Shown here: piece by piece, positions 1 to 27,208 of the stretch
How positions within the stretch are numbered: position 1 is the stretch's first letter
How the letters are laid out: the number at the start of each line of letters is the position of its first letter
Source of the DNA: a virus
Lineage: Duplodnaviria > Heunggongvirae > Uroviricota > Caudoviricetes
IMG/VR virus record: IMGVR_UViG_2874956758_000001
Length of the DNA stretch: 35,721 nucleotides
Direction: 5' to 3' (one strand)
The notes under the pieces: model-generated
What the model saw: only the letters and a program-made list of their open reading frames with translations
Database searches by the model: none
What the model was told of the DNA's origin: nothing
Translations under genes and position numbers: made by a program

Positions 1-396
1 TTAAGGGACACAGCCTAAATCACGATTGATACTCGAAGGTTTAATACCCTGACTTCTTCGGGTGGCGCAGTACTGGCTGATAAGCGATTTCGTAATTTGA
101 AATGCGCATGGGTCATTCGTTATTTTTGTGAAGATTTCAATTTTTCCAAGATTAGATCTCCCATGCTCTTCGTGTTTACCCTTTAAATCCCACCAGATCT
201 GTGTCAGCTCCGACAGACGTCGCTTGTCTGTTGGTTTTGATAGCCATTCTTTATTGTGGTGGTTGTACAACGTGTATTTCTCGAAAGCGACAGCTTCGCT
301 TTTCTTATCAAACTTCCTACGGATGCGTTTTCCATTACGTCCAGTAGGGCGGATGTCCACTTCATATCGACCATCATCGAGTTTTTTGATTGCCAT
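1..396 (-). CDS. int: Phage integrase (tyrosine recombinase), N-terminal part only; gene continues beyond the left edge of the window
   Basis: ORF reads off the window start on the minus strand; N-terminus MAIKKLDDGRYEVDIRPTGRNGKRIRRKF resembles the P2 Int arm-binding region; sits immediately next to the C repressor as in P2. Confidence 0.8.
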   Translation of the reverse strand: MAIKKLDDGRYEVDIRPTGRNGKRIRRKFDKKSEAVAFEKYTLYNHHNKEWLSKPTDKRRLSELTQIWWDLKGKHEEHGRSNLGKIEIFTKITNDPCAFQITKSLISQYCATRRSQGIKPSSINRDLGCVP

Positions 397-511
397 CAGA
401 AAACCCTCCGAGTGGTGTGTTTTTTTGCGACTACTAATCGCTTTTTTCGTGGTGGCTGAAATTTAGCCACCAATAGTAGGCACTTGTGATGAATATATTC
501 ACGATGAATTG

Positions 512-811
512 TTAACCAGTCTTTTGACCGGAGTGGGGCGACGTTGTTTCGTTTTGCCCAAAGTGTGCGAGAGCGGGCGCAATTTGCCCGGACTCAGGAG
601 CGATCTGATTGGTCATGAACCATAAAGTGTATTTGGTGAATTGTGGGGTCTGCAGGATGTTCATCATGACATCTGTTGGAGGTGTTGAACGACCACTTTC
701 ATAGTAACTCAGCGTGCCATACGGAACCCCTGTTAAATCAGCAAGTTGTTGTCTGCTCAAATACTCTGATTTTCGCATTAAGACTATCTTCTCGCTTATC
801 GTGTTTGACAT
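512..811 (-). CDS. C: P2-type immunity repressor C (HTH)
   Basis: 99 aa, the size of P2 C; HTH segment QQLADLTGVPYGTLSYYESG; divergent from cox across a short control region. Confidence 0.85.
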   Translation of the reverse strand: MSNTISEKIVLMRKSEYLSRQQLADLTGVPYGTLSYYESGRSTPPTDVMMNILQTPQFTKYTLWFMTNQIAPESGQIAPALAHFGQNETTSPHSGQKTG

Positions 812-814
812 AGT

Positions 815-844
815 GTTTAGATCTCAATAGTATCTAGTTTAGAT
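815..844. promoter_or_regulatory. Candidate C-repressor operator: direct repeat GTTTAGAT at 815-822 and 837-844 (22 bp centre to centre) in the C/cox divergent promoter region
   Basis: Direct 8-bp repeats seen in sequence between divergent C and cox; P2 C operators are direct repeats flanking the early promoter. Exact operator bounds are inferred. Confidence 0.45.
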
Positions 845-925
845 GTAGATTGTTTAGTGCTTGGATGTGGGCACTAAAAGGCATTATAAGGCATTAAACG
901 CAATTCATGAGGGCTAGAGGACGAC

Positions 926-1201
926 ATGAGCAAGCAAGTAACACTTATGACTGATGCGATTCCTTATCAGGAGTTCGCAAAACTAATAGGAAAATCGACA
1001 GGAGCGGTTCGTCGGATGATCGATAAAGGAAAGTTGCCTGTAATTGATATGACCGATCCACAATCAGCTTCAGGTCGTGCTGGTGAATATTGGGTATACC
1101 TTCCGGCATGGAATAACGGACTAAAACTGGCTTATGAAAGCCGCCCTAAAGAAATTCGTGACGGCTGGTTAATGTGGTTAGGTCTCGGTGAACCACGTTA
1201 A
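926..1201 (+). CDS. cox: Cox excisionase / transcriptional regulator
   Basis: 91 aa, the size of P2 Cox; first gene of the early rightward operon opposite C. Confidence 0.85.
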   Translation: MSKQVTLMTDAIPYQEFAKLIGKSTGAVRRMIDKGKLPVIDMTDPQSASGRAGEYWVYLPAWNNGLKLAYESRPKEIRDGWLMWLGLGEPR

Positions 1202-1211
1202 GGAGAACCGT

Positions 1212-1382
1212 ATGAATGAGCCGCGTTGTATTGCTCAGTTATTGCGTAACGAAAGCCCCAGGGCGATTGACTTCACCATCACCCACGGTAAGGGGCGTAA
1301 GGGAATCATTATCCGCACCAAAAAACAGAGTCCGTTAAAGAAGGCTCTGACCTTTCTGAAAAGCCGGAGGGTCTGGAAATGA
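1212..1382 (+). CDS. Small early-operon hypothetical protein (position of P2 orf78)
   Basis: ATG at 1212 preceded by AAGGAG; the ORF-track start at 1188 lacks a ribosome-binding site. Function unknown. Confidence 0.45.
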   Translation: MNEPRCIAQLLRNESPRAIDFTITHGKGRKGIIIRTKKQSPLKKALTFLKSRRVWK

Positions 1383-1879
1383 CAGTGATGACGCTTAATC
1401 TCGTTGAAAAACAGCCAGCAGCTATGCGCCGGATAATTGGTAAGCATCTGGCCGTCCCTCGCTGGCAGGAGACATGTGATTATTATAATCAGATGATGGA
1501 GCGCGAACGGCTAACAGTTTGCTTTCATGCGCAGTTAAAACAGCGTCACGCAACGATGCGTTTTGAAGAAATGAACGACGTCGAACGTGAACGGCTGGTT
1601 TGTGCAATTGATGAATTGCGTGGGGCATTCTCAAAACGCCGTCAGGTCGGTGCAAGTGAGTATGCATATATTAGCTTTTTAACTGTCAGTCAGCGCCGTA
1701 CTTTATTTATGCACGCACGACTGACAGAAAAAGAATTTAACCAGCCATACTGGCGAATTAATGAAGAATCATGTTACTGGCGTGAAGCTTTATTCCGTGC
1801 ATTACGTGAATTATTCAGCCTGTTTGAGTATGCACCGACAATTCTGACGTCGGTAAAACCAGAGCAATATCTGCATTAA
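1379..1879 (+). CDS. B: Replication protein B (helicase-loader-like)
   Basis: 166 aa, the size and position of P2 B. Confidence 0.8.
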   Translation: MTVMTLNLVEKQPAAMRRIIGKHLAVPRWQETCDYYNQMMERERLTVCFHAQLKQRHATMRFEEMNDVERERLVCAIDELRGAFSKRRQVGASEYAYISFLTVSQRRTLFMHARLTEKEFNQPYWRINEESCYWREALFRALRELFSLFEYAPTILTSVKPEQYLH

Positions 1880-1942
1880 GTAATTAACCAGAGTTTTTAA
1901 CGCACTTAATCGTGCGGGGCTTCTTTTTGCCTGGAGAAAGTT

Positions 1943-2167
1943 ATGCATACAGTTTCTGAAAATCAGTGCGGTAAATACGCATTACTGCTGCAACAGGCCA
2001 GAACCGAAGCACAGGCCGACGCTGCGACGCGCTTTTCTTCTCATCTTGACGCCATGATTCGCCACATCACAAAGGCGGAGTTATCCCGCGTGGAGATAGT
2101 CGAGCTGCTCAGTCAGGAGTCGGAAAAATTTCACAATATCGGATTGTCTCGCGGGGAGGTGCTTTGA
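1943..2167 (+). CDS. Early-operon hypothetical protein (P2 orf80 position)
   Basis: 74-aa ORF in the early operon, translationally coupled to the next ORF. Confidence 0.5.
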
Positions 2168-2469
2168 TGTCCTGTCCTCGTTCAGTTGTATTACTGAATA
2201 ACGCCTTAAAAATCGCCGTTATGGAAAATGGTGATTTGTCTCTTATTCAACTTTGTCTTGATAAAGAAAAACGCGACATAACTGAATCTGTTATCGCGAT
2301 TTATCAGAACGAATTAAACCTCCTGTCTGATGTGGTCAATTTACTTGTGAAACGCGCTGTATTCCACAAGCAAATCTCCTCCGAGGATGAACTGACGAAA
2401 TTAACGACAGAAATCGCCAGCTATTGCGCTGATGAATTTAAGAAACTGAACGACAAAAGGAGCTGGTGA
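2164..2469 (+). CDS. Early-operon hypothetical protein (P2 orf81 position)
   Basis: 101-aa ORF overlapping its neighbours by 4 nt at both ends. Confidence 0.5.
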
Positions 2470-2693: not shown

Positions 2694-2965
2694 GTATTCG
2701 TATCGAAATTGGTGAACGTTATGTCGTTACCAGTGACAGCTTTCAGTTTATTCTCCACGAGAAAAAGAGAGCGGAAAGCGGTAAAAACGCCGGTCAGGAA
2801 TGGCTGGCGGTGGTTGGTTATTACCCGAAATTAATCCAGCTCGTTTCCGGCCTGATGCATCACGATATTCTGACCGGAAGCGCAAAGTCTTTTGCTGATT
2901 TAAACGCGCAGGTTGAGCAACTCAGCAAGCGTTGCTCAGAGGCTTTTGGCTCATATGGCCGTTAA
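2690..2965 (+). CDS. Early-operon hypothetical protein (P2 orf83 position)
   Basis: 91-aa ORF overlapping the start of gene A. Confidence 0.5.
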   Translation: MSIRIEIGERYVVTSDSFQFILHEKKRAESGKNAGQEWLAVVGYYPKLIQLVSGLMHHDILTGSAKSFADLNAQVEQLSKRCSEAFGSYGR

Positions 2966-5231
2966 AGCCTCCGGGCGTTTTGTCCCTCCGTCAGCATTTG
3001 CCGCAGGCATCGGTAAGATGTTTACCGGTGCTTATGCATGGAACGCACCACGCGAGGCTGTCGGGCGCGAAAGACCTCTTACACGTGATGAGATGCGTCA
3101 GGTGCAAGGTGTTTTATCCACGATTAACCGCCTGCCTTACTTTTTGCGCTCGCTGTTTACTTCACGCTATGACTACATCAGGCGCAATAAAAGCCCGGTG
3201 CACGGGTTTTATTTCCTCACATCCACTTTTCAGCGTCGTTTATGGCCGCGCATTGAGCGCGTGAATCAGCGCCATGAAATGAACACCGATGCGTCGTTGC
3301 TGTTTCTGGCAGAGCGCGACCAGTATGCGCGCCTGCCGGGAATGAATGACAAGGAGCTGAAAAAGTTTGCTGCCCGTATCTCATCGCAGCTTTTCATGAT
3401 GTATGAGGAACTCTGCGATGCCTGGGTGGATGCGCATGGCGAGAAAGAATCGCTGTTTACGGATGAGGCGCAGGCTCACCTCTATGGTCATGTTGCTGGC
3501 GCTGCACGTGCTTTCAATATTTCCCCTCTCTACTGGAAAAAATACCGTAAAGGACAGATGACCACGAGGCAGGCATATTCTGCCATTGCCCGTCTGTTTA
3601 ACGATGAGTGGTGGACTCATCAGCTTAAAGGCCAGCGTATGCGCTGGCATGAGGCGTTACTGATAGCTGTCGGGGAGGTCAATAAAGACCGTTCTCCTTA
3701 TGCCAGTAAACATGCCATTCGGGATGTGCGTGCGCGCCGCCAGGCAAATCTGGAATTTCTTAAATCGTGTGACCTTGAAAACAGGGAAACCGGCGAGCGC
3801 ATCGACCTTATCAGTAAGGTGATGGGCAGTATTTCTAATCCTGAAATTCGCCGGATGGAGCTGATGAACACCATTGCCGGTATTGAGCGTTACGCCCCCT
3901 CAGAGGGTGATGTGGGGATGTTTATCACGCTTACCGCGCCGTCAAAGTATCACCCGACACGTCAGGTTGGAAAAGGCGAAAATAAAACCGTCCAGCTTAA
4001 TCACGGCTGGAATGATGAGGCATTTAATCCAAAGGATGCGCAGCGTTATCTCTGCCGTATCTGGAGCCTGATGCGCACGGCATTCAAGGATAATGATTTA
4101 CAGGTCTACGGTTTGCGAGTCGTCGAGCCACACCACGACGGAACGCCGCACTGGCATATGATGCTTTTTTGTAATCCACGCCAGCGTAACCAGATTATCG
4201 AAATCATGCATCGCTATGCGCTCAAAGAGGATGGCGACGAAAGAGGAGCCGCGCGAAACCGTTTTCAGGCAAAACACCTTAACCGGGGCGGTGCTGCGGG
4301 ATATATCGCGAAATACATTTCAAAAAATATCGACGGCTATGCACTGGATGGTCAGCTCGATAACGATACCGGCAGACCGCTGAAAGATACTGCGGCGGCT
4401 GTTACCGCATGGGCGTCAACGTGGCGCATCCCGCAATTTAAAACGGTTGGCCTGCCGACAATGGGAGCTTACCGTGAGCTACGTAAATTGCCTCGCGGCG
4501 TCAGCATTGCTGATGAATTTGACGAACGCGTGGAGGCTGCACGCGCCGCCGCAGACAGTGGCGATTTTGCGCTGTATATCAGCGCGCAGGGCGGGGCAAA
4601 TGTCCCGCGCGATTGTCAGACTGTCAGGGTCGCCCGTAGCCCGTCGGATGACGTTAACGAATACGAGGAAGAAGTCGAGAGAGTGGTCGGCATTTACGCG
4701 CCGCATCTCGGCGCGCGTCATATTCATATCACCAGAACGACGGACTGGCGCATTGTGCCGAAAGTGCCGGTCGTTGAACCTTTGACTTTAAAAAGCGGCA
4801 TCGCCGCGCCTCGGAGTCCTGTGAATAACTGTGGAAAGCTCACCGGTGGTGATACTTCGTTACCGGCTCCCACACCTTCTGAGCACGCCGCAGCAGTGCT
4901 TAATCTGATTGATGACGGTGTTATCGAATGGAATGAGCCGGAGGTCGTGAAGGCGCTCCGGGGCGCATTAAAACACGGGCTGAGAACGCCAAACCGTCAG
5001 CAAAGAAACGGAAGCACGTTAAAACCACATGAAATTGCACCATCGGCCAGACTGAGCCGGTCGGAACGATTGCAAATCACCCGTATCCGCGTTGACCTTG
5101 CTCAGAATGGAATCTTGCCCCAGCGATGGGAGCTTGAGGCGCTGGCGCGTGGGGCAACCGTAAATTATGACGGGAAACAATTCACGTATCTGGCTGCTGA
5201 TGAGTGGCCGGGATTCTCAACAAACATATAA
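2955..5231 (+). CDS. A: Replication initiator A (rolling-circle HUH endonuclease)
   Basis: About 758 aa from ATG 2955 (MAVKASG); the ORF is open from 2913. HUH motif PHWHMMLF present; size and position match P2 gpA. Confidence 0.88.
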   Translation: MAVKASGRFVPPSAFAAGIGKMFTGAYAWNAPREAVGRERPLTRDEMRQVQGVLSTINRLPYFLRSLFTSRYDYIRRNKSPVHGFYFLTSTFQRRLWPRIERVNQRHEMNTDASLLFLAERDQYARLPGMNDKELKKFAARISSQLFMMYEELCDAWVDAHGEKESLFTDEAQAHLYGHVAGAARAFNISPLYWKKYRKGQMTTRQAYSAIARLFNDEWWTHQLKGQRMRWHEALLIAVGEVNKDRSPYASKHAIRDVRARRQANLEFLKSCDLENRETGERIDLISKVMGSISNPEIRRMELMNTIAGIERYAPSEGDVGMFITLTAPSKYHPTRQVGKGENKTVQLNHGWNDEAFNPKDAQRYLCRIWSLMRTAFKDNDLQVYGLRVVEPHHDGTPHWHMMLFCNPRQRNQIIEIMHRYALKEDGDERGAARNRFQAKHLNRGGAAGYIAKYISKNIDGYALDGQLDNDTGRPLKDTAAAVTAWASTWRIPQFKTVGLPTMGAYRELRKLPRGVSIADEFDERVEAARAAADSGDFALYISAQGGANVPRDCQTVRVARSPSDDVNEYEEEVERVVGIYAPHLGARHIHITRTTDWRIVPKVPVVEPLTLKSGIAAPRSPVNNCGKLTGGDTSLPAPTPSEHAAAVLNLIDDGVIEWNEPEVVKALRGALKHGLRTPNRQQRNGSTLKPHEIAPSARLSRSERLQITRIRVDLAQNGILPQRWELEALARGATVNYDGKQFTYLAADEWPGFSTNI

Positions 5232-5292
5232 AAATGATTGAAATGGTTGATTTTGCTTCCACTTGATGGTTGGTATCAGCAACTGATGGATC

Positions 5293-5553
5293 ATGCGGAA
5301 CTGCGTGGCAATCTTGCTTTGGAAGCATGTCATTATGACTAATGCATACATTACTAGCTATGCGTCCGGTTCCGCCATTGTACTCGAGCAAGAGTCTCCG
5401 GCTGATGGCTATTGTTTACAAATTATGGTCAAAGAGAATCTGACCCTCTACGAGTTGGTCGGAGGGACTGAGATCGTCAGTGATAACTGCAGCCGTATGG
5501 GAGAAATAAATAATCCCAACCGTCCATATTTCTACCTTCACGCGTGCCCATAA
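5293..5553 (+). CDS. Hypothetical small protein downstream of A
   Basis: 86-aa ORF (alternative start MTNAYI at 5335) followed by a hairpin; no recognisable motif. Confidence 0.3.
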   Translation: MRNCVAILLWKHVIMTNAYITSYASGSAIVLEQESPADGYCLQIMVKENLTLYELVGGTEIVSDNCSRMGEINNPNRPYFYLHACP

Positions 5554-5576
5554 TCTGTCACCACGTTGACCATAGA

Positions 5577-5620
5577 AAACCCCGCCGACGCTGAAACTCG
5601 CTTTCAGTGCTGGCGGGGTT
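5577..5620. terminator. GC-rich hairpin between the converging A-side ORF and the RT locus
   Basis: Imperfect inverted repeat AACCCCGCCGACGCTGAAA / TTTCAGTGCTGGCGGGGTT, with a T-run on the minus-strand side. Confidence 0.5.
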
Positions 5621-5873
5621 GAACAACGAGCTTGCGAGGCGTTAGGGATGTCGAAATTTCATATGACTGTTCGCTTTAATGCTTAACGAAGTCATGTTGA
5701 GTTAATAACATTGTTTCGTTAAGCGCTGTGTTCCTTGTCGAATAAGTTCACTTCTTCTGGTGTAATATCAGTATCCATTTCTTCGAATGCATCTAAATCC
5801 ACAATTTTTGTTTTTTTCAAAATTGATAGTATTTTCTGTTTGTTTTTATTTTTGGCTGAACCCGGAATCCACT

Positions 5874-6311
5874 CTACATCCCACAGGCCATCAATGGTAA
5901 ATGTTTTTTTTCCTTGAGTTCATCATTTATGCGTTGACATAGGGCTGTTTTGTAATCGCCTTCCCATTGTGTGTGTATCTTCCCTTGAACTCGTTGAAAC
6001 CAAATATCTAACATTTCAGTATTTGGTTGTTTACCTAGTTTACAATGAAGTTGTTGTAACTTGCCAAATTTGAGTTCATCGTCGTCATAAAGGAAGGTCA
6101 AGAGTTTTGCGAAAATAGCCATTCCCACTGGGTAGGTGGTTGGGTTTTTAGCCATGATGCTTGAAACAATTCCAAGCATTGCATCTAGTTGATGCCCACT
6201 ATTTGTGATCTTTTTCTTCCTAAATAATTTTCGCAAGAAACCATTTAAATATCTGACTGTAATTTTGGAGTTTTGATGTTTTAAAGAAAATAAATATATT
6301 GCATACAACAT
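5874..6311 (-). CDS. C-terminal fragment of the Abi-P2-like reverse transcriptase (helical C-terminal domain); frame continues from the upstream RT ORF across an A-run
   Basis: AT-rich 145-aa ORF; its frame is open upstream into the end of the RT ORF, and a third frame continues past its stop to about 5727. Confidence 0.55.
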   Translation of the reverse strand: MLYAIYLFSLKHQNSKITVRYLNGFLRKLFRKKKITNSGHQLDAMLGIVSSIMAKNPTTYPVGMAIFAKLLTFLYDDDELKFGKLQQLHCKLGKQPNTEMLDIWFQRVQGKIHTQWEGDYKTALCQRINDELKEKKHLPLMACGM

Positions 6312-6337
6312 TTTCTGTAGGGAGTTGAACGACCCTT

Positions 6338-7264
6338 CTATAATATATTCTTTTTTGCTGATTTAAGGGAGTGAAGAATGATGTCGTCATGTAGTTCTGT
6401 TTTTCTTGAGTTTAAATCAAGCCCAAACTCACCTAAGACCTCAACCAAACACTTTGAGATTTTGTCCAAATCATCTTTACTGCTTGAAAATATTCGATAA
6501 TCATCTCTGTAGCGAACTACTTTGTAATCCGTTATTTTTTGCTCTTCGGTTTTTTTTCTTAGCTGTAAATCAATTTCGCCTAAAATTAATTCGGCAAATG
6601 TATCCATCAACGTACTACCCAATGGTATTCCGTTTGTCTGATTACTCATCATCATCTGGATATGAGTGTCAATCAATCGTCCTGGGTTATTGTTATTTTC
6701 TTTCTTTTTGGCCTCTTCTTTTGAGATGAATACCCATTCAAAGCTATGAGTGTAAATAGAAGGGTAGAAGTTTGAAATGTCTGTGCTGAACATGAACTCA
6801 TACTCAAGAGCCAATGAAAGACTTTTTTGTTCAAAATCTTCCCACCAGTTTAAAACAGATGCAGCTACGTTTGAGGTGTTCTTTTTGCTCACTGGGGTAC
6901 TTGAGCATAAAAAAAGATCATTAGACTCAAACTCTCTAAATTTATTCCTTATAGCATTCCAGTTGGAAGGGGATGTAATAAGTTTACAAAAATACACGTA
7001 GTACAGAGGATTAATTAGTGTTATTCGTCGCCAGCTATATAAGCCATCTTTGCTGACTAAAACCTCGTAATTTATATTCTTCCCCATCAATGACTTGGAG
7101 TCAGGTTGGAAGTTGATTTTACCTTCATCTATCGCGGAGTTGATTTCTTCAAGCAAGGAAGAAAAATCGACATAACTGGGTAGCTCCAGAGTAGTGTATG
7201 AATCATGCTGCAGAAAATACTTAAGCGCTCTACCAGTAGTTAATTCATAAATCTTTTTCATAAT
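6338..7264 (-). CDS. Reverse transcriptase, Abi-P2 / UG-Abi class (defence-associated RT), N-terminal and catalytic part
   Basis: RT motifs seen directly: FMFSTDISNFYPSIY, GIPLGSTLMDTF, VVRYRDDYRIF (YxDD), LDLNSRKTEL. Probable start MKKIYEL at 7264; the ORF is open to 7387. AT-rich compared with phage core genes. Confidence 0.75.
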   Translation of the reverse strand: MMKKIYELTTGRALKYFLQHDSYTTLELPSYVDFSSLLEEINSAIDEGKINFQPDSKSLMGKNINYEVLVSKDGLYSWRRITLINPLYYVYFCKLITSPSNWNAIRNKFREFESNDLFLCSSTPVSKKNTSNVAASVLNWWEDFEQKSLSLALEYEFMFSTDISNFYPSIYTHSFEWVFISKEEAKKKENNNNPGRLIDTHIQMMMSNQTNGIPLGSTLMDTFAELILGEIDLQLRKKTEEQKITDYKVVRYRDDYRIFSSSKDDLDKISKCLVEVLGEFGLDLNSRKTELHDDIILHSLKSAKKNIL

Positions 7265-7467
7265 TAGTGATTTCTTCTTAAGTTGCGCACAAATAACTAC
7301 CTGTTTTCTATCATGATAACGATGCGAATGCGAGCAATTCAGGAAGTGCATTACTCTGCATCGAAGCGCACGCAAGTCAGAGAACAATAACTGCCTTGCG
7401 ACATCAGGACTGGCGCGCTAGTTGAGTGGTCATGCAACTGCATTAAAACCGCCCCATGAAGCGGGCG

Positions 7468-7486
7468 GGCGAGGCGGGGAAAGCAC
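7468..7486. other. cos: P2-type cohesive end (cos) sequence GGCGAGGCGGGGAAAGCAC
   Basis: Exact 19-nt string matching my recollection of the P2/186 cohesive end, in the expected position between the A-side variable locus and portal gene Q. Confidence 0.7.
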
Positions 7487-7628
7487 TGCGCGCTGGCGGT
7501 GGTGCTGATTTTATTTTTTCAGCGTCTGAGCGCGTCGTGATGGCGTTTAGATTGTGTGCCGGGGCGTTGGTTTGTCTGCGGGCTGTTTTGCGCGGAGGTG
7601 AGCGTGTGAGGGCGTGATGACGGGGTGT

Positions 7629-7650
7629 AAAAAAGCCGCCCGCAGGCGGC
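7629..7650 (-). terminator. Rho-independent terminator downstream of Q
   Basis: GCCGCC-CGCA-GGCGGC hairpin followed by TTTTTT on the minus strand, directly after the Q stop. Confidence 0.6.
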
Positions 7651-7655
7651 GATGT

Positions 7656-8690
7656 TCAGCCGTTGTCAGTGTCCAGTGAGTAGTTTTTAAAGCGGATGAC
7701 CTCCTGACCGAGCCAGCCGTTTATTTCCCGAATCCTGTCCTGTAACGGGATAAGCTCATTGCGGACAAAGACCTTTGCCACTTTCTCAATATCACCCAGC
7801 GACCCGACGTTCTCCGGCTTGCCGCCCATCAACTGAAAGGGGATGCGGTGCGCGTCCAGCAGGTCAGCGGCGCTGGCTTTTTTGATATTAAAAAAATCGT
7901 CCTTCGTTGCCACTTCACTGAGTGGGATAATTTTAATGCCGTCGGCTTTCCCCTGTGGGGCATAGAGAAACAGGTTTTTAAAGTTGTTGCGGCCTTTCGA
8001 CTTCACCATGTTTTCGCGGAGCATTTCGATATCGTTGCGATCCTGCACGGCATCGGTGACGTACATGATGTATCCGGCATGTGCGCCGTTTTCGTAATAC
8101 TTGCGGCGGAACAGCGTGGCTGATTCATTCAGCCAGGCAGAGTTAAGGGCGCTGAGATATTCCGGCAGGCCGTACAGCTCCTGATTGATATCCGGCTCCA
8201 GCAGGTGAAACACGGAGCCGGGCGTGAAAGGTGTTGGCTCGTTGAAGGACGGCACCCACCAGTAAATATCTTCTTCCACACCACGGCGGGTATATTTTGC
8301 CGGTGAGGTTTCCAGTCTGATGACCTTACCGGTGGTGCTGTAACGCTTTTCCAGAAACGCATTACCGAACACCAGAAAATCCAGCACAAAGCGGCTGAAA
8401 TCCTGCTGGGAAAGCCACGGATGCGGGATAAATGTCGAGGCCAGAATATTACGTTTGACGTAAATCGGGGAGCTGTGATGCACGGCAGCACGCAGGCTTT
8501 TTGCCAGACCGGTAAAGCTGACCGGTGGCTCATACCATCTGCCGTTACTGATGCACTCGACGTAATCCAGAATGTCACGGCGATCGAGTACCGGCACCGG
8601 CTCACCAAAGGTGAATGCCTCCATTTTCGGGGCGCTGGCGGTCATTGTTTTTGCCGCTGGTCGCGGTGTTTTCCCTTTTTTCTTGCTCAT
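7656..8690 (-). CDS. Q: Portal protein
   Basis: 344 aa, the size and position of P2 gpQ next to cos and upstream of P. Confidence 0.88.
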   Translation of the reverse strand: MSKKKGKTPRPAAKTMTASAPKMEAFTFGEPVPVLDRRDILDYVECISNGRWYEPPVSFTGLAKSLRAAVHHSSPIYVKRNILASTFIPHPWLSQQDFSRFVLDFLVFGNAFLEKRYSTTGKVIRLETSPAKYTRRGVEEDIYWWVPSFNEPTPFTPGSVFHLLEPDINQELYGLPEYLSALNSAWLNESATLFRRKYYENGAHAGYIMYVTDAVQDRNDIEMLRENMVKSKGRNNFKNLFLYAPQGKADGIKIIPLSEVATKDDFFNIKKASAADLLDAHRIPFQLMGGKPENVGSLGDIEKVAKVFVRNELIPLQDRIREINGWLGQEVIRFKNYSLDTDNG

Positions 8691-9208
8691 CAGTAAAACT
8701 CCAGAATGGTGGATGTCAGCGGAGTGCTGATACCGGCGGTGAGTGGCTCATTTAACAGGGCGTGCATGGTCGCCCAGGCGAGGTCGGCGTGGCTGGCTTC
8801 CTCGCTGCGGCTGGCCTCATAGGTGGCGCTGCGTCCGCTGCTGGTCATGGTCTTGCGGATAGCCATAAACGAGCTGGTGATGTCGGTGGCGCTGACGTCA
8901 TATTCCAGACAGCCACGGCGGATAACGTCTTTTGCCTTGAGCACCATTGCGGTTTTCATTTCCGGCGTGTAGCGGATATCGCGAGCGGCGGGATAGAACG
9001 AGCGCACGAGCTGGAACACACCGACACCGAGGCCGGTGGCATCAATCCCGATGTATTCGACGTTGTATTTTTCGGTGAGTTTGCGGATGGATTCTGCCTG
9101 GGTGGCAAAGTCCATGCCTTTCCACTGGTGACGCTCAAGTATTCTGAATTTGCCACCGGCCACCACCGGCGGTGCCAGCACCACGCATCCGGCGCATAGT
9201 CTTCCCAT
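8690..9208 (-). CDS. P: Terminase large subunit gpP, C-terminal (nuclease domain) portion, in a different frame from the N-terminal portion
   Basis: This frame reads GKFRILERHQWKGMDFATQAESIRKLTEKYNVEYIGIDATGLGVG; it overlaps the N-terminal ORF, whose translation degenerates into low-complexity sequence in the overlap. Confidence 0.7.
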   Translation of the reverse strand: MGRLCAGCVVLAPPVVAGGKFRILERHQWKGMDFATQAESIRKLTEKYNVEYIGIDATGLGVGVFQLVRSFYPAARDIRYTPEMKTAMVLKAKDVIRRGCLEYDVSATDITSSFMAIRKTMTSSGRSATYEASRSEEASHADLAWATMHALLNEPLTAGISTPLTSTILEFY

Positions 9209-10389
9209 TCTTCCAGCGTGTCGACCATGCAGCGTTGCAGCTCCTCGAACGGGAACACCGATGCCTTGTCGTCAACAAATTCACACATGAACAGGTTTTT
9301 AAAATCGTCGGCGCTGTTTTCGCGTTTGAGCTGCTCAATGTCGAACAGCGTGCAGCCGCCTTTCAGGGCGTCCTCAATGGTGACAATCTGCCGCCACTGG
9401 CCGTCTGCACAGAGAAGACCTCCGGCAAGGGCGTTATGACTGACGTCGATTTCCACGCGTTCGGCGGCGCTGGCGCGTCCCCGGTTGAACAGTTCACCCG
9501 ACCAGAACGGGTAGGCGTCGTGCGCCAGCGTGGACGGGGTGGAGAAATAGGTCGAGCGCAGGTGACTCTGTGAGGCCATACCTGATGCCACCTTACGCAG
9601 TACCTGAAAATTCGGGATCCAGAAAATCTCATCGACGTAAAGGTCGCCGTTATGGCTCTGTGCGGTGTTGGAGTTGGTGCCGAGAAAAATCAGTTTTGCG
9701 CCGTTATTGCCCAGGACAATCGGGTCACCGGTCAGGTCAACGTCAACCAGCCGGGCAAAGGCGATGATGTATTCACGGAACACATACGCCTGCGTTTTAC
9801 TGGCCGACAGAAAAATCTGGTTATGACCTGTTTTCAGGGCGCGCAGCAGCGCCTCGCGGGAAAAATAAAACGTTGCGCCAATCTGGCGGGATTTCAGGAT
9901 ATCGCGGATGCGGTGCTCAAGCCCGGCGCGATACCAGTGCAACTGATAGTCGAAAGACTGCTCAAAGAAAATCTGCTCCAGCTTTTCGATGGCCTCGTCA
10001 CTGAAAAAATTCTTTTTCGGTTTGCGCCGCCCGCCTTTGTTGCGGTTAGCGACGTTCGGATTAAGGTCTGCCTCGTTGCCGGTCTGACTGTAACGGTTTA
10101 CCCGTGCCAGTCGTTCAATCTGGCGTCCCAGCAGGTCAATTTCCTTGAAGTCACCGCCGGTTTTCTGCGGTTTGATGATGAGCTGGGTCAGTCGTGCTTC
10201 CAGACTCATTTCGACACGGCTGATGGGGGCAACGCTGTCCCAGCCGTCGCGCTGTTTCCAGCTCTGCACCGTCGGGCGTTTCATCTGCAACATGGCGGCA
10301 ATCTGCGGCACGGAAAACCCCTGCCAGTACAGCAGCGCCGCCTGACGACGCGGGTCGTGTAAAAGAGTGGTGTCTGTGGTGATGGTCAT
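8956..10389 (-). CDS. P: Terminase large subunit gpP (ATPase), N-terminal portion; frame lost near 9165-9195
   Basis: Probable start MTITTD at 10389 with GAGGT ribosome-binding site. Protein-like up to WEDYAPDA, then WCWHRRWW and Pro/Ser-rich nonsense. Combined span 8690-10389 is about 566 codons, against roughly 590 aa recalled for P2 gpP. Confidence 0.75.
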   Translation of the reverse strand: MTITTDTTLLHDPRRQAALLYWQGFSVPQIAAMLQMKRPTVQSWKQRDGWDSVAPISRVEMSLEARLTQLIIKPQKTGGDFKEIDLLGRQIERLARVNRYSQTGNEADLNPNVANRNKGGRRKPKKNFFSDEAIEKLEQIFFEQSFDYQLHWYRAGLEHRIRDILKSRQIGATFYFSREALLRALKTGHNQIFLSASKTQAYVFREYIIAFARLVDVDLTGDPIVLGNNGAKLIFLGTNSNTAQSHNGDLYVDEIFWIPNFQVLRKVASGMASQSHLRSTYFSTPSTLAHDAYPFWSGELFNRGRASAAERVEIDVSHNALAGGLLCADGQWRQIVTIEDALKGGCTLFDIEQLKRENSADDFKNLFMCEFVDDKASVFPFEELQRCMVDTLEEWEDYAPDAWCWHRRWWPVANSEYLSVTSGKAWTLPPRQNPSANSPKNTTSNTSGLMPPASVSVCSSSCARSIPPLAISATRRK

Positions 10390-10562
10390 GAATACCTCGC
10401 CGTGATGAATACACGGCAAGGCTACTGAGTCGCGCCCTGCGATTCGCTAAGGTGCTGTTGTGTCAGTGATAAGCCATCCGGGACTGATGGCGGAGGATGC
10501 GCATCGTCGGGAAACTGATGCCGACATGTGACTCCTCTAATCACTATTCAGGACTCCTGACA

Positions 10563-15888: not shown

Positions 15889-16318
15889 TGCCGTCACGGT
15901 GCTGAAAACTAACCCCGATATGCTGCGGATATTCGTGGATAACGGGAGTATTGCCTCCACACTGGCGGCGTCGCTGTCATTCGAAAAGCGTTACACGCTC
16001 AATGTGATTGTGACCGACTTTACCGGTAATTTTGACCTGCTCATCGTGCCGGTGCTGGTGTGGCTGCGGGAAAATCAGCCCGACATCATGACCACCGACG
16101 AAGGTCAGAAAAAAGGTTTCACGTTTTATGCAGACATCAACAATGACAGCAGCTTTGATATCAGCATCAGCCTGATGCTGACCGAGCGAACGCTGGTCAG
16201 TGAGGTTGACGGTGCGCTGCATGTGAAGAATATCCCGGAACCTCCGACGCCGGAGCCAGTCAATCGCCCGATGGAGCTTTATATCAATGGTGAACTGGTG
16301 AGCAAGTGGGATGAATGA
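15851..16318 (+). CDS. R: Tail completion protein R
   Basis: 155 aa, the size and position of P2 gpR. Confidence 0.8.
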   Translation: MLKPDSLRRALTDAVTVLKTNPDMLRIFVDNGSIASTLAASLSFEKRYTLNVIVTDFTGNFDLLIVPVLVWLRENQPDIMTTDEGQKKGFTFYADINNDSSFDISISLMLTERTLVSEVDGALHVKNIPEPPTPEPVNRPMELYINGELVSKWDE

Positions 16319-16517
16319 GTTTAAGCGTTTTGAAGACCGGCTGACCGGACTGATTGAATCGCTGTCACCGTCTGGGCGTCGGCGACTGAGTGCAGAACTG
16401 GCGAAACGTCTGCGGCAGAGTCAGCAGCGTCGGGTGATGGCACAGAAAGCCCCGGACGGCACACCCTACGCACCACGCCAGCAGCAGAGCGCCAGAAAAA
16501 AAGACCGGTCGCGTTAA
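16311..16517 (+). CDS. S: Tail completion protein S, N-terminal portion; frame breaks at an A7 run near 16494-16500
   Basis: 68-aa ORF ending ...SARKKDRSR; removing one A from the run would read ARKKTGRVKRKMFAKLITS and join the next ORF. Combined span 16311-16764 is about 150 codons, the size of P2 gpS. Confidence 0.7.
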   Translation: MNEFKRFEDRLTGLIESLSPSGRRRLSAELAKRLRQSQQRRVMAQKAPDGTPYAPRQQQSARKKDRSR

Positions 16518-16524
16518 GCGAAAA

Positions 16525-16764
16525 ATGTTTGCGAAACTTATCACCAGTCGTTTTTTGCATATCCGCGCCAGCCCTGAACAGGCATCAATGGAGTTTTACG
16601 GCGGGAAGTCACCGAAAATCGCCAGTGTGCATCAGTTCGGTCTGTCGGAAGAAACCCGGAAAGACGGTAAGAAAAATGATTATCCGGCGCGTCCTCTGCT
16701 CGGCTTTACCGGTGAGGATGTGCAGATAATTGAAGAGATTATCCTGGCTCACCTCGACCGTTAG
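16525..16764 (+). CDS. S: Tail completion protein S, C-terminal portion
   Basis: 79-aa ORF in the frame that the upstream S fragment would enter after a 1-nt change in the A-run. Confidence 0.7.
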   Translation: MFAKLITSRFLHIRASPEQASMEFYGGKSPKIASVHQFGLSEETRKDGKKNDYPARPLLGFTGEDVQIIEEIILAHLDR

Positions 16765-16830
16765 TTGTGCCATTCCCGACACATCATCGTTACATTGCCG
16801 CCGGTATGACCCGGCGGCATCCTTCCCGTT

Positions 16831-21499: not shown

Positions 21500-21901
21500 G
21501 TGGGAACCAAAGTGTCAGATATGCAGAAAAATGTGACTCCCGGCAGGCGAAAAGGCTGCCCTAATTATCCTCCCGAATTTAAACAGCAGCTCGTTGCTGC
21601 CTCCTGTGAACCCGGGATATCCATCTCAAAACTTGCTCTTGAAAATGGCATTAACGCCAATCTGTTGTTCAAATGGCGACAACAATGGCGCGAGGGAAAG
21701 CTGCTATTACCTTCTTCAGAGAGCCCCCAGCTACTTCCTGTGACTCTCGATGCAGCTGCCGAACAGCCAGAATCGCTCGCAGAGGACCCGGAAACCCTCA
21801 GTATCAGCTGTGAGGTAACGTTCCGGCACGGGACGCTCCGCTTCAATGGCAATGTCAGCGAAAAGCTCCTGACTCTGCTGATACAGGAACTGAAGCGATG
21901 A
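21500..21901 (+). CDS. tnpA: IS66-family accessory protein TnpA (HTH)
   Basis: 133-aa first ORF of the element; exact start uncertain. Confidence 0.7.
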   Translation: MGTKVSDMQKNVTPGRRKGCPNYPPEFKQQLVAASCEPGISISKLALENGINANLLFKWRQQWREGKLLLPSSESPQLLPVTLDAAAEQPESLAEDPETLSISCEVTFRHGTLRFNGNVSEKLLTLLIQELKR

Positions 21902-22245
21902 TCCCGTTACCTTCCGGGACCAAAATTTGGCTGGTTGCCGGTATCACCGATATGAGAAATGGCTTCAACGGTCTGGCTGCGAAAGTACAGACGGCGCTGA
22001 AAGACGATCCCATGTCCGGCCATGTTTTCATTTTCCGGGGCCGCAGCGGCAGTCAGGTTAAACTGCTGTGGTCCACCGGTGACGGACTGTGCCTCCTGAC
22101 CAAACGGCTGGAGCGTGGGCGCTTCGCCTGGCCGTCAGCCCGTGATGGCAAAGTGTTCCTTACGCAGGCGCAGCTGGCGATGCTGCTGGAAGGTATCGAC
22201 TGGCGACAGCCTAAGCGGCTGCTGACCTCCCTGACCATGCTGTAA
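21898..22245 (+). CDS. tnpB: IS66-family Orf2 / TnpB
   Basis: 115 aa; start overlaps the tnpA stop; conserved IS66 Orf2-like sequence ([11 protein letters not shown]...[24 protein letters not shown]). Confidence 0.8.
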
Positions 22246-22294
22246 ATCTCTTTATCCTGGTTGTCACAGAATAAGCCCGGTAAAATACGGGCTT

Positions 22295-23827
22295 ATGAAC
22301 GACATCTCTTCTGACGACATCTTCCTGCTGAAACAGCGCCTGGCCGAACAGGAGATCCACGCCCTGCAGGAAAAGCTGAGCAACCGGGAGCGCGAAATAG
22401 ACCATCTGCAGGCGCAGCTGGATAAACTCCGCCGGATGAACTTCGGCAGTCGTTCCGAAAAAGTCTCCCGCCGTATCGCACAAATGGAAGCCGATCTGAA
22501 CCGGCTTCAGAAAGAGAGCGATACGCTGACTGGTAGGGTGTATGACCCGGCAGTACAGCGTCCGTTGCGTCAGACCCGCACCCGTAAGCCGTTCCCTGAA
22601 TCACTACCCCGTGACGAAAAGCGACTGTTGCCTGCGGCGCCGTGCTGCCCGAACTGCGGCGGTTCACTGAGCTATCTGGGCGAGGATACCGCCGAACAGC
22701 TGGAGTTGATGCGTAGTGCCTTCCGGGTTATCCGGACGGTACGGGAAAAACATGCCTGTACTCAGTGCGATGCCATCGTGCAGGCACCTGCACCTTCGCG
22801 GCCCATCGAGCGGGGTATCGCCGGACCGGGGCTGCTGGCCCGCGTGCTGACCTCGAAGTATGCAGAGCACACCCCGCTGTATCGCCAGTCAGAAATATAC
22901 GGCCGGCAAGGTGTGAAGCTGAGCCGTTCACTGCTGTCGGGCTGGGTGGATGCATGCTGCCGGCTGCTGTCTCCGCTGGAAGAGGCGCTTCATGGCTATG
23001 TCATGACTGACGGCAAACTCCATGCTGATGATACCCCGGTCCAGGTACTGATGCCGGGTAATAAGAAGACGAAGACCGGGCGGTTGTGGGCGTATGTTCG
23101 TGATGACCGCAATGCCGGGTCAGCGTTGGCACCTGCAGTGTGGTTCGCTTACAGCCCGGACAGAAAAGGCATCCATCCGCAGACTCATCTTGCTTGCTTC
23201 AGCGGTGTGCTGCAAGCGGATGCGTACGCCGGGTTCAACGAGCTGTACCGCAATGGTGGGATAACGGAAGCTGCCTGCTGGGCTCATGCCCGCCGAAAGA
23301 TCCACGATGTGCACGTCCGCATCCCGTCAGCACTGACGGAAGAAGCCCTGGAGCAGCTCGGTCAGTTGTACGCCATAGAGGCGGATATAAGGGGAATGCC
23401 GGCAGAGCAGCGGCTTGCTGAACGTCAGCGAAAAACGAAACCGCTGTTGAAATCCCTGGAAAGCTGGTTGCGTGAAAAGATGAAGACCCTGTCGCGACAC
23501 TCAGAGTTGGCGAAGGCGTTCGCGTACGCACTTAACCAGTGGCCGGCACTGACGTACTATGCGAACGATGGCTGGGTGGAAATCGACAACAACATCGCTG
23601 AAAATGCCCTGCGGGCGGTCAGTCTGGGTCGTAAAAACTTCCTGTTCTTCGGCTCTGACCATGGTGGTGAGCGGGGAGCGCTACTGTACAGCCTGATCGG
23701 GACGTGCAAACTGAATGACGTGGATCCAGAAAGCTACCTTCGCCATGTGCTTGGCGTCATAGCAGACTGGCCGGTCAACCGGGTCAGCGAACTGCTTCCG
23801 TGGCGCATAGCACTGCCAGCTGAATAA
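22295..23827 (+). CDS. tnpC: IS66-family transposase TnpC
   Basis: 510 aa; N-terminal coiled coil, Cys cluster (CPNCG...CTQC), DDE-type core; ends just inside the right inverted repeat. Confidence 0.85.
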
Positions 23828-24417: not shown

Positions 24418-24509
24418 GTTGTATGAGCTTACATATCTATTGCGTAGAGTAAAGCATAATCTGACAGTCCGCTCTGTGCCAGAAGCGGACATAGCAGGTG
24501 GATTTGCCC

Positions 24510-25415
24510 CTATATTTCCAGACATCTGTTATCACTTAACCCATTACAAGCCCGCTGCCGCAGATATTCCCGTGGCGAGCGATAACCCAGCGCACTATGC
24601 GGATGCCATTCGTTATAATGCTCGAACGCCTCTGCAAGGTTCTTTGCTGCCGTTAACCCGTCTGGTTTGGGCATGATACTGATGTAGTCACGCTTTATCG
24701 TTTTCACGAAGCTCTCTGCTATTCCGTTACTCTCCGGACTCCGCACCGCCGTGTTCTTCGGTTCAAGTCCCAACATCCGGGCGAACTGGCGTGTTTCATT
24801 AGCCCGGTAGCATGAACCATTATCCGTCAGCCACTCCACTGGAGACGACGGAAGATCGTTGCCGAAGCGGCGTTCCACCGCTCCCAGCATGACGTCCTGT
24901 ACTGTTTCACTGTTGAAGCCGCCGGTAGTCACCGCCCAGTGCAGTGCCTCACGATCACAGCAGTCCAGCGCGAACGTGACACGCAGTCTCTCTCCGTTAT
25001 CACAGCAGAACTCGAACCCGTCAGAGCACCATCGCTGATTGCTTTCTTTCACGGCCACTCTGCCTGTATGTGCCCGTTTCGATGGCGGTACAGCAGGTTT
25101 TCGCTCAAGCAACAGCGCATTCTGGCGCATGATCCGGTAAACACGTTTGGCATTGATCGCAGGCATACCATCAAGTTCTGCCTGTCTGCGAAGCAGCGCC
25201 CATACCCGACGATAACCATACGTGGGCAGCTCTCCGATAACATGGTGTATACGGAGAAGCACATCCGTATCATCAGTGTGACGACTGCGGCGGCCATCCA
25301 TCCAGTCATCGGTTCGTCTGAGAATGACGTGCAACTGCGCACGCGACACCCGGAGACAACGGCTGACTAAGCTTACTCCCCATCCCCGGGCAATAAGGGC
25401 GCGTGCGCTATCCAC
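24510..25415 (-). CDS. insD: IS2 transposase OrfB (DDE integrase-like); expressed as an InsCD fusion by -1 frameshift
   Basis: 301 aa, recognised as IS2 InsD. Confidence 0.9.
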
Positions 25416-25738
25416 TTTTTTGCCCGTCCATATTCAACGGCTTCTTTGAGGAGTTCATTTTCCATCGTTTTCTTGCCGAGCAGGCGCTGGAGTTCTTTAA
25501 TCTGCTTCATGGCGGCAGCAAGTTGAGAGGCAGGAACAACCTGTTCTCCGGCGGCCACAGCAGTAAGACTTCCTTCCTGGTATTGCTTACGCCAGAGAAA
25601 TAACTGGCTGGCTGCTACACCATGTTGCCGGGCAACGAGGGAGACCGTCATCCCCGGTTCAAAGCTCTGCTGAACAATTGCGATCTTTTCCTGTGTGGTA
25701 CGCCGTCTGCGTTTCTCCGGCCCTAAGACATCAATCAT
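25373..25738 (-). CDS. insC: IS2 OrfA (HTH regulator)
   Basis: 121 aa from [13 protein letters not shown]; overlaps the insD start. Confidence 0.9.
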
Positions 25739-25901
25739 CTGTTCTCCAATGACTAGTCTAAAAACTAGTATTAAGACTATCACTTATTTAAGTGATACTG
25801 GTTGTCTGGAGATTCAGGGGGCCAGTCTAGCAGGTGCCAGATGCATTTGTTATTCTTCATTGAATTGAGCAGTATCCTTAACAGGAACTCTGAATACATA
25901 A

Positions 25902-26540
25902 ATGAAGATGAAAAACATGTCTGAAGTGTTGACCCAAGAAAAGCTTATTTTTGTTGCCCAGAGACTAAAGGCCCTCGCGCAGTCAGGCCTGACCTATTCA
26001 AAAGACGTCTTTGACAAGGAACGCTATGAAGCCTTGCGTGAAATTGCCGCTGGACTGCTGAGTTCGCAGTTTGATATTAGCCGCAATGATTTGTTTCATG
26101 TATCGGAAACGGGTTACGCGACGCCCAAAACAGATGTGCGTGCGTTTATCCTGCGTAATAATCGTATTCTGATGGTGAAAGAGGCTGCAGATGGATTATG
26201 GAGTCTTCCTGGCGGATGGGCAGATGTTGGAGATACACCTTCTGAAGCTGTGCGTCGAGAGGTCGAAGAAGAAACCGGATTAAAAGTCAGAGTGACTAAA
26301 CTATTGGGAGTTTGGGATCGTAATCTTCACGGCCATCCGCCTTTACCCTGGCATGTTTACAAGCTGATTTTTCTCTGTGAAGAAGTAGGTGGCAGCCTGT
26401 CAATCAGCCATGAGTCACTCGATGCTGATTTTTTTGATGTCAACGACCTGCCTGAATTGTCGCTTTCAAGAATTGTGCCTGAGCAGATTGCTGTCAGCCT
26501 GAGAGTAGCGAAAGGTGATGAAAAAACATGGTTTGATTAA
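25902..26540 (+). CDS. NUDIX hydrolase with an N-terminal helical extension
   Basis: NUDIX box GGWADVGDTPSEAVRREVEEETG (Gx5Ex7REUxEExGU pattern) in the C-terminal half of a 212-aa protein; first gene of a two-gene cassette in the G-FI variable locus. Confidence 0.8.
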   Translation: MKMKNMSEVLTQEKLIFVAQRLKALAQSGLTYSKDVFDKERYEALREIAAGLLSSQFDISRNDLFHVSETGYATPKTDVRAFILRNNRILMVKEAADGLWSLPGGWADVGDTPSEAVRREVEEETGLKVRVTKLLGVWDRNLHGHPPLPWHVYKLIFLCEEVGGSLSISHESLDADFFDVNDLPELSLSRIVPEQIAVSLRVAKGDEKTWFD

Positions 26541-26563
26541 CTTTCTTCTGCAACCATTAAGGA

Positions 26564-27208
26564 ATGGCAATGATATTCAACGCTAAGGGTTTTTTATTCG
26601 ATATGGACGGTACGCTGGTTGATTCAACAGCCGTAGTGGAAAGCGTCTGGAGAGATTTTTGTGCAGAATACGGTCTTGATTCTCAGGCTGTGATTGCTTA
26701 CGCACACGGGCGGCAAACGATTGATACACTAACGCATTTTATTGGTGCAGGTGAGAAAACCAATAAAATCGCGGCCTCACTCGAAGAGGTTGAAATCAAC
26801 ACGACAGAAGGCGTTACTGAAGTAAAAGGGGCCGCTGCACTCTTATCAAAACTGCCACCGGATAGCTGGGCACTTGTCACTTCTGCAGGCAGAATGCTTG
26901 CCGAAAACAGGATGAAAGCGGCTAATCTCCCCTTACCCATAGTAATGGTGTGTGCAGAAGATGTAATGACGGGAAAACCAAGTCCCGAGGGTTACATCAA
27001 AGCAGCTTTGGCTTTGGGCCTTGAGCCTGGTGAATGCGTGGTATTTGAGGATGCATCTGCGGGTATAAAAGCAGGGCTGGCAAGTGGAGCTTCGGTAATA
27101 GCTGTTCAGCCTGACGCTCTGGGATCATCTGAAGCCCATGCCGTCAGCGAACTGTCTGACATTATGGTCAAGATTTCCGGAGAACGTTTCAATATCATCT
27201 GTGGTTAA
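26564..27208 (+). CDS. HAD-superfamily hydrolase (subfamily IA phosphatase / beta-phosphoglucomutase-like)
   Basis: HAD motif I FDMDGTLVDS, motif II LVTSAG, motif IV FEDASAGIKAG; 23 bp downstream of the NUDIX gene. True start may be the second ATG at 26570. Confidence 0.8.
   Translation: MAMIFNAKGFLFDMDGTLVDSTAVVESVWRDFCAEYGLDSQAVIAYAHGRQTIDTLTHFIGAGEKTNKIAASLEEVEINTTEGVTEVKGAAALLSKLPPDSWALVTSAGRMLAENRMKAANLPLPIVMVCAEDVMTGKPSPEGYIKAALALGLEPGECVVFEDASAGIKAGLASGASVIAVQPDALGSSEAHAVSELSDIMVKISGERFNIICG

Follow-up and report, generated by a model that had tools for sequence, protein, structure and literature searches.

A broken reverse transcriptase gene between gene A and cos

In a P2-like prophage, the segment between the replication gene A and cos carries a minus-strand reverse transcriptase (RT) locus that is not covered by one open reading frame. 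The question it raises is whether a defence gene has truly been lost here, whether the assembly is at fault, or whether two short genes are the natural state. A sequence-only reading of the window (the whole stretch of DNA that was analysed, 35,721 nucleotides) had assigned the locus to the Abi-P2 type of RT and had left pseudogene and assembly error as alternatives. Our analysis decides between them with high confidence: the locus is a true inherited Abi-P2 pseudogene, with a most likely inactive product, in a decaying, defective P2-like prophage of Shigella dysenteriae.

The window is a P2-like prophage, with the host gene yegQ at its right end. The slot between gene A and cos/gpQ, occupied by tin and old in phage P2, is a hotspot for anti-phage systems (PMC9122126), and the placement of the RT in this slot by the sequence-only reading agrees with both borders that we located:

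2913..5231, plus strand: P2 gene A (replication endonuclease), one border of the hotspot, from the ORF list and the annotations of relatives
5719..7261, minus strand: Abi-P2 polymerase pseudogene, 1543 nt in the window and 1545 nt (514 aa) when intact, from the repair, the matches to PDB 7R08 and PADLOC AbiP2, and the intact relatives
7468..7486, plus strand: cos, equal to the 19-nt cosL of the P2 reference, on the cos side of the A-to-cos hotspot
7656..8690, minus strand: portal gene Q, beyond cos, from the ORF list and relatives

The cosL 19-mer of the P2 reference, GGCGAGGCGGGGAAAGCAC (the first 19 bases of the P2 genome), is matched exactly at 7468-7486. The RT locus is AT-rich, as had been described, with a GC content of 0.34-0.40 against about 0.55 in the flanks. 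The ORF list gives a 349-aa ORF at 6338..7387 (minus strand, TTG start) and a 145-aa ORF at 5874..6311 (minus strand). When one base is added at each of the two homopolymer sites that had been named, the coding sequence, spread over three frames in the window, becomes a single CDS (7261..5719) of 514 aa, within the 510-550 aa that had been expected, and the repaired protein differs from the intact Escherichia coli RefSeq protein WP_061091528.1 at three residues. The third frame, said to stay open to about 5727, does continue, but the repaired CDS ends at 5719. Its likely start is the ATG at 7261, the same ATG that PGAP uses in relatives, and not 7264, which had been proposed and is the preceding codon. 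The N-terminal extension in the P2-EC58 and P2-EC30 annotations corresponds to the 31 N-terminal residues unseen in the crystal structure. An Rfam scan of 5000-8000 (E<=0.1) returned no non-coding RNA matches. A promoter scan of 5200-7700 gave two plus-strand sigma-70-like matches, below the shuffle expectation, and no minus-strand sigma-70-like site, and thus the RT promoter was not located.

Identity of the gene

P2-EC30 and P2-EC58 are the example prophages that the literature gives as encoding Abi-P2 (PMC9508834). The repaired protein matches PDB 7R08, the Abi-P2 of P2-EC30, with an E-value of 1.1e-255 over residues 1-508, and the PADLOC AbiP2 model with 529.5 bits over profile positions 4-487 of 489, while the PADLOC runners-up (Drt6, UG14, Drt4 and AbiK, 100-160 bits) match the RT core only. 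The alignment to Abi-P2 and AbiK-family RTs that the sequence-only reading had proposed as a check thus runs end to end with 7R08 and separates AbiP2 (529.5 bits) from AbiK (104 bits). Pfam RVT_1 matches the first ORF (E 8.6e-11; 42.4 bits, with the cut-off at 29.6), and the scores of the NCBIfam Drt models (Drt4, Drt3b) are far under their cut-offs. The palm motif Y(R/V)DD is present, with the YRDD that had been noticed lying at residues 251-254 of the repaired protein. Tyr61 of P2-EC30 Abi-P2 is the priming residue, and the Y61F mutant is inactive (PMC9508834); LELPSY30 of the repaired protein aligns with LELPAY61 of 7R08, so that the priming tyrosine is conserved as Tyr30. At the DNA level, the locus is about 99% identical to P2-EC58 orf544 and to gp33 of phage pro147.

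On these matches, and because it lies in the variable A-to-cos region of a P2-like prophage, as is expected of Abi-P2, the gene is assigned to the known Abi-P2 family at its known locus, essentially as the P2-EC58 orf544 allele; the type call of the sequence-only reading was right. The coding sequence of the helical domain is present and aligns with 7R08, but it is split into two other frames after residues 304 and 450. Judged from the reading frames, the allele in the window does not carry the helical domain on the polypeptide of the RT and is a member of Abi-P2 by descent, not an intact member.

For the P2-EC30 protein, a trimeric state and protein-primed, untemplated DNA synthesis have been described (PMC9508834, PMC8632793), and orf570 of P2-EC30 excludes phage T5 according to Odegrip et al. 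2006, as cited in PMC9508834 and PMC8632793.

Two single-nucleotide contractions divide the gene among three frames

The locus was aligned with those of five relatives (E. coli 2017.02.04CC, phage pro147, P2-EC58, E. coli S56 and E. coli VTB97448v). In this alignment, the window shows exactly two 1-nt gaps, which delimit the following features:

6338..7261, minus strand: fragment 1, 307 aa, Abi-P2 residues 1-304 followed by NIL and a stop, with Tyr30, fingers, palm and YRDD
6351..6356, minus strand: frameshift site 1, A6 here and A7 in all compared relatives, reading GC A_AAA_AAG AAT
5874..6311, minus strand: fragment 2, the 145-aa ORF from an internal ATG, Abi-P2 residues ~318-450 (middle of the helical domain) followed by the out-of-frame tail EKKHLPLMACGM
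5904..5913, minus strand: frameshift site 2, at a G/A junction, GG+A8 here, reading G A_AAA_AAA CAT in the frame of fragment 2
5719..5903, minus strand: fragment 3, the last ~62 codons, Abi-P2 residues ~452-514, in a third frame

The sequence-only reading had joined the 349-aa and 145-aa ORFs at an A6 run. A run contracted from A7 to A6 is indeed the cause, but it lies at 6351-6356 and not at 6342-6347, about 9 nt away. The coordinates of the A8 run at 5904-5911 were exact. At this second site, most relatives read GGG+A8 and P2-EC58 reads GG+A9, so that the added A recreates the P2-EC58 allele. Fragment 2 matches positions 319-439 of the PADLOC AbiP2 profile, and in the frame of fragment 3 the sole reachable product is a 33-aa ORF with a TTG start. 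Two inherited 1-nt contractions at homopolymer tracts have thus split the gene into its three frames.

Three lineage-specific substitutions were found in the CDS: one synonymous change before the first break and two non-synonymous changes after it, D341G and I366V, at positions where D341 and I366 are conserved in P2-EC30. This distribution may be consistent with relaxed constraint downstream of the break, with numbers too small to carry weight.

Breaks of this gene at A-runs also occur in other lineages. Enterotoxigenic E. coli B7A and strain TW10573 carry an identical 101-nt allele at site 2, with a 462-aa product; E. coli S56 has lost one A from the A8 run at 6550-6557; and the protein of E. 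coli P0030 ends in a manner like fragment 1 on a different allele background. The B7A/TW10573 allele is among those closest to the window (6 mismatches), and one intact allele is equally close (5 mismatches). The exact sharing of site 2 with B7A and TW10573 suggests that it is the older of the two lesions, and with an intact allele equally close both descent and recurrence are possible.

The breaks are inherited

Two explanations would leave the gene, or genes, of this locus intact. According to one, the organism carries a complete gene and both breaks are false indels that the assembly has at homopolymers. Both do lie in or beside A-runs of 6-8, where such errors are typical; of the 46 runs of at least 6 in the window, 7 are in the RT locus; and the E. 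coli S56 assembly is broken at another A8 run. An error of this kind would have to have been repeated in separate assemblies. The exact 307-aa and 145-aa products are encoded on nine contigs, seven of 20-50 kb and two of more than 1 Mb, and NCBI names them WP_284515066.1 and WP_284515065.1, both from S. dysenteriae. One genome (CP026831.1, GCA_002950055.1), from which the window probably comes, is 100% identical to it over 17,261 bp, a second (GCA_031665835.1) differs from the window by 3 SNPs and no gaps over the same 17,261 bp, and a third, a draft contig (GCA_053979195.1), by 1 SNP and no gaps over 8,438 bp. That both indels are common to separate assemblies that differ in SNPs points to inherited mutations; the independence of these copies is judged from their SNPs and from their deposition under different assembly accessions, on the level of assemblies and not of reads. 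The same two indels thus recur in three separately deposited, SNP-differing assemblies and on the seven further contigs of 20-50 kb, whereas the intact 1545-nt span is found in 58 of the 60 listed among 65 E. coli complete-genome records (allele at >=99% identity), in which assorted technologies read the tracts at intact length. The A6 allele at site 1 was found in none of the 65 E. coli complete records. In addition, the prophage has a 73-bp deletion and IS insertions, which are beyond what homopolymer error can produce. As other assemblies contain both truncated products unchanged, in copies that differ in SNPs and have no gaps, we reject assembly error as highly improbable, and the choice that had been left between it and a pseudogene is settled for the inherited pseudogene.

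The other explanation takes the present layout as natural, with an RT of about 307 aa and a separate, conserved 145-aa partner. Gene callers do annotate the locus as two genes in the S. dysenteriae genomes, but relatives at 99% DNA identity have a single 514-aa ORF, the solved Abi-P2 is a single chain that spans both parts, and the 145-aa ORF is the in-frame middle of the Abi-P2 chain with a frameshifted tail. The sequence-only reading had named such an arrangement (an RT of 309 aa with a conserved 145-aa gene) as the finding that would speak against it; what the intact relatives encode is one protein of 514 aa. Given these relatives and the single-chain structure, a two-gene architecture can practically be dismissed.

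Decay of the surrounding prophage

The inherited Abi-P2 pseudogene is not the only damaged gene of this element. In the terminase gene P, 73 bp have been deleted between two CGGCGC copies near 9190-9195; none of the 15 best E. coli matches has this deletion, and it recurs in the other Shigella-type assemblies. The tail-completion gene S is split by an added A (A6 to A7) at 16496-16502, and GCA_031665835.1 carries the same lesion. The tail-fibre region contains an IS66-family element (~21500-23827) and an IS3-family element (~24499-25783), and in complete genomes the integrase is interrupted by an IS exactly at the first position of the window. The RT frameshifts are two of at least seven lesions, and a prophage grounded in this way is in keeping with an IS-rich Shigella genome (PMC8072062). 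On this reading, the prophage is integrated beside yegQ in S. dysenteriae with Abi-P2 in the tin/old defence hotspot, and the loss of Abi-P2 is part of the general decay of the defective prophage.

Predicted consequence for function

Abi-P2 has a two-lobed structure, in which RT-like fingers and a palm without a thumb are followed by a C-terminal helical domain of 11 helices (PMC9508834). The helical domain stands in the place of the thumb, bounds the channel for the nascent DNA on its far side, and has helices that take part in the trimer interface (PMC9508834). Residue 304 is the last before the first break, which lies roughly where the RT and helical lobes meet. The 307-aa product keeps the priming tyrosine, the fingers, the palm and the active site and lacks the whole helical domain; since the first break removes this entire domain, the truncated product is most likely inactive. 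In AbiK, deletion of the 46 C-terminal amino acids abolishes defence, and forcing the protein into a monomeric state abolishes polymerase activity (PMC9508834). The requirement for a trimer comes from AbiK, and the link between trimerization and polymerization is said to differ for Abi-P2 (PMC9508834). By analogy, the 307-aa product has very likely lost both polymerase activity and defence.

Slippery heptamers at both breaks

Both breaks in the allele of the window form -1 slippery heptamers, A_AAA_AAG at site 1 and A_AAA_AAA at site 2, each in the zero frame. A -1 slip or an extra A would restore exactly the wild-type residues at both sites, ..SAKKEYIIEG.. at the first and ..LKEKKTFTI.., as in P2-EC58, at the second. 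It is therefore conceivable that -1 ribosomal slippage, or A-addition by RNA polymerase, maintains expression at a low level and provides a down-tuned or switchable version of a toxic Abi enzyme. In favour of this are the correct zero frame of both heptamers and the reproduction of the intact protein sequence by a -1 shift, the frameshifting of both motifs at >0.1% without stimulators in E. coli (PMC4066793), and the case of pDEST17, in which C-AAA-AAA rescued 1-nt deletions at 25-60% under overexpression (PMC1851650); moreover, breaks in A-runs recur in other lineages (B7A/TW10573, S56 and P0030). However, unstimulated heptamers reach at most about 10 times a background of 0.055% (PMC4066793), and two in series would give roughly 1e-6 to 1e-5 of normal output. 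The hairpins predicted in the 60 nt downstream are weak (-7.1 and -10.1 kcal/mol, raw energies), and manual reading of the 25 nt before each site showed no evident SD-like element. Nearly every relative has the gene in frame (58 of the 60 E. coli records listed), and the shift is thus no conserved, programmed trait; P2-EC30 is without a run at site 2, and the surrounding prophage is in decay. We regard retained low-level expression of this kind as very unlikely. For the native locus, rescue by slippage is most likely negligible in practice, with a trace of full-length protein possible.

A broader version of this idea would treat the A-runs of EC58-type alleles as mutational or decoding switches. 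Contraction would turn off a costly enzyme, slippage would leak wild-type protein or the tract would revert, and the recurrent breaks would represent phase variation and not plain decay. We give this little credence as well. Conserved switch tracts were considered and rejected, as P2-EC30 lacks a run at site 2 and retains no more than A6 at site 1. The A-runs seem simply to follow from Lys-Lys codons in so AT-rich a gene, where they act as mutational weak points.

Significance for defence-gene annotation

An inherited Abi-P2 pseudogene at this position is an ordinary pseudogene of a known defence gene; it opens no new mechanism, and its value lies mostly in annotation. The dead 307-aa fragment still reaches 401 bits with the PADLOC AbiP2 model, a profile score so strong that censuses of defence systems could count the locus as working. 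Defence pseudogenes have been described as rare, with defective P2 elements tending to keep their defence genes intact (preprint 10.64898/2026.02.27.708500). The locus is a counter-example to that rarity, as a defence gene that decayed along with int, P and S in a Shigella genome.

Comparison with known systems

The closest known system is orf544 of P2-EC58 (AM157368.1, CAJ43157.1), with about 99% DNA identity and, after repair, 98.8% protein identity. The two share the position of the gene between A and cos and the same small neighbouring ORF on the opposite strand (ORF85; 5293..5553 in the window). They differ in that the window has the two 1-nt deletions and encodes no full-length product, whereas P2-EC58 reads GG+A9 at site 2; the annotated start of P2-EC58 is 30 codons upstream of the likely start in the window. 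P2-EC30 orf570 (PDB 7R08) can be aligned end to end with the repaired protein at 74% amino acid identity and belongs to an allele group separate from the EC58 type. T5 exclusion, the trimer and untemplated synthesis are known for the P2-EC30 protein, while the copy in the window is broken.

More distantly, AbiK of Lactococcus lactis, Drt4/UG15, Drt3b and Drt6 have the RT core in common with the protein of the window. On the RT part of this protein, the PADLOC models score 104 bits for AbiK, 160 for Drt6 and about 147 for Drt4, against 529.5 for AbiP2. AbiK resembles Abi-P2 in protein priming and in its two-lobed build of RT and helical domain, but the helical domains of the two have no sequence homology (PMC9508834). 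The tin and old genes of phage P2 occupy the same slot between gpA and cos/gpQ (PMC9122126), with unrelated proteins and mechanisms.

Interrupted genes and insertion sequences

The prophage carries, outside the RT gene (the Abi-P2 polymerase pseudogene between P2 gene A and cos), the following features (window coordinates unless another record is named):

1-396, integrase gene fragment, the window start falling within the gene (16866-18827 in L008, from the complete S. dysenteriae genome CP026831.1)
5293-5553, plus strand, 86-aa ORF flanked by gene A and the RT gene's end
8690..9208 and 8956..10419, minus strand, terminase large-subunit gene P in two fragments, broken at 9185-9200
about 16311-16770, plus strand, split tail-completion gene S
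about 21500-23827, IS66-family element comprising three ORFs (HTH_Tnp_1, TnpB_IS66, DDE_Tnp_IS66)
about 24499-25783, minus strand, IS3-family element with HTH_Tnp_1 and rve ORFs
25902-27208, plus strand, AT-rich pair of hydrolase genes, one NUDIX (212 aa) and one HAD-family (214 aa)

Gene S is split by a +1 insertion in the A-run at 16496-16502, which is A7 in the window and A6 in intact phages, Wphi among them, making this the third homopolymer frameshift in the prophage. The terminase ATPase gene is frameshifted at 9185-9200, where 73 bp have been deleted between a pair of CGGCGC direct repeats. This deletion is common to the other S. dysenteriae-type assemblies and was not found in the best 15 E. 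coli matches. In the complete genomes, a DDE_Tnp_1 insertion sequence abuts an N-terminal integrase fragment of 131 aa and separates it from the remainder of the integrase, and the gene is therefore IS-disrupted. A second IS3-family copy, 99.7-99.9% identical to the one in the window, adjoins the interrupted integrase in these genomes. The IS66-family element has the tail-fibre gene H on one side and the gene for tail-fibre assembly on the other.

The NUDIX/HAD pair lies where P2 has its second variable locus (Z/fun, ahead of FI) and could represent cargo or a defence module; the NUDIX protein showed a weak match to the PADLOC candidate model PDC-S07 (E 6.6e-10).

Relatives and neighbours of the Abi-P2 locus

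Among the RefSeq matches listed, the RT gene was located at exactly 2765..4309 in about twenty complete E. coli chromosomes, including NZ_AP027754.1 and NZ_CP047461.1. Inspection of a single one of them, NZ_AP027754.1, placed the P2 replication endonuclease gene at 1..2277. These chromosomes look as if their start had been reset from dnaA to the prophage replication gene, likely an artefact of automated start-fixing.

The frameshift allele at site 2 of the RT gene (GG followed by A8) is identical in the ETEC strains B7A (record L011, 301-1689) and TW10573, where the product is annotated as an RNA-directed DNA polymerase of 462 aa, without the final ~64 residues.

The 86-aa ORF beside the RT gene has annotated counterparts, namely ORF85 in the P2-like prophage P2-EC58 and gp34 in phage pro147, and searches against Pfam and PADLOC returned no match for it. 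Phage pro147 also encodes, between the portal gene and its Abi-P2 gene (record L002, 789-2683), a retron Ec48-family RT together with its membrane effector. Since this retron RT adjoins Abi-P2, two RT-based defence systems lie side by side in the hotspot of pro147.
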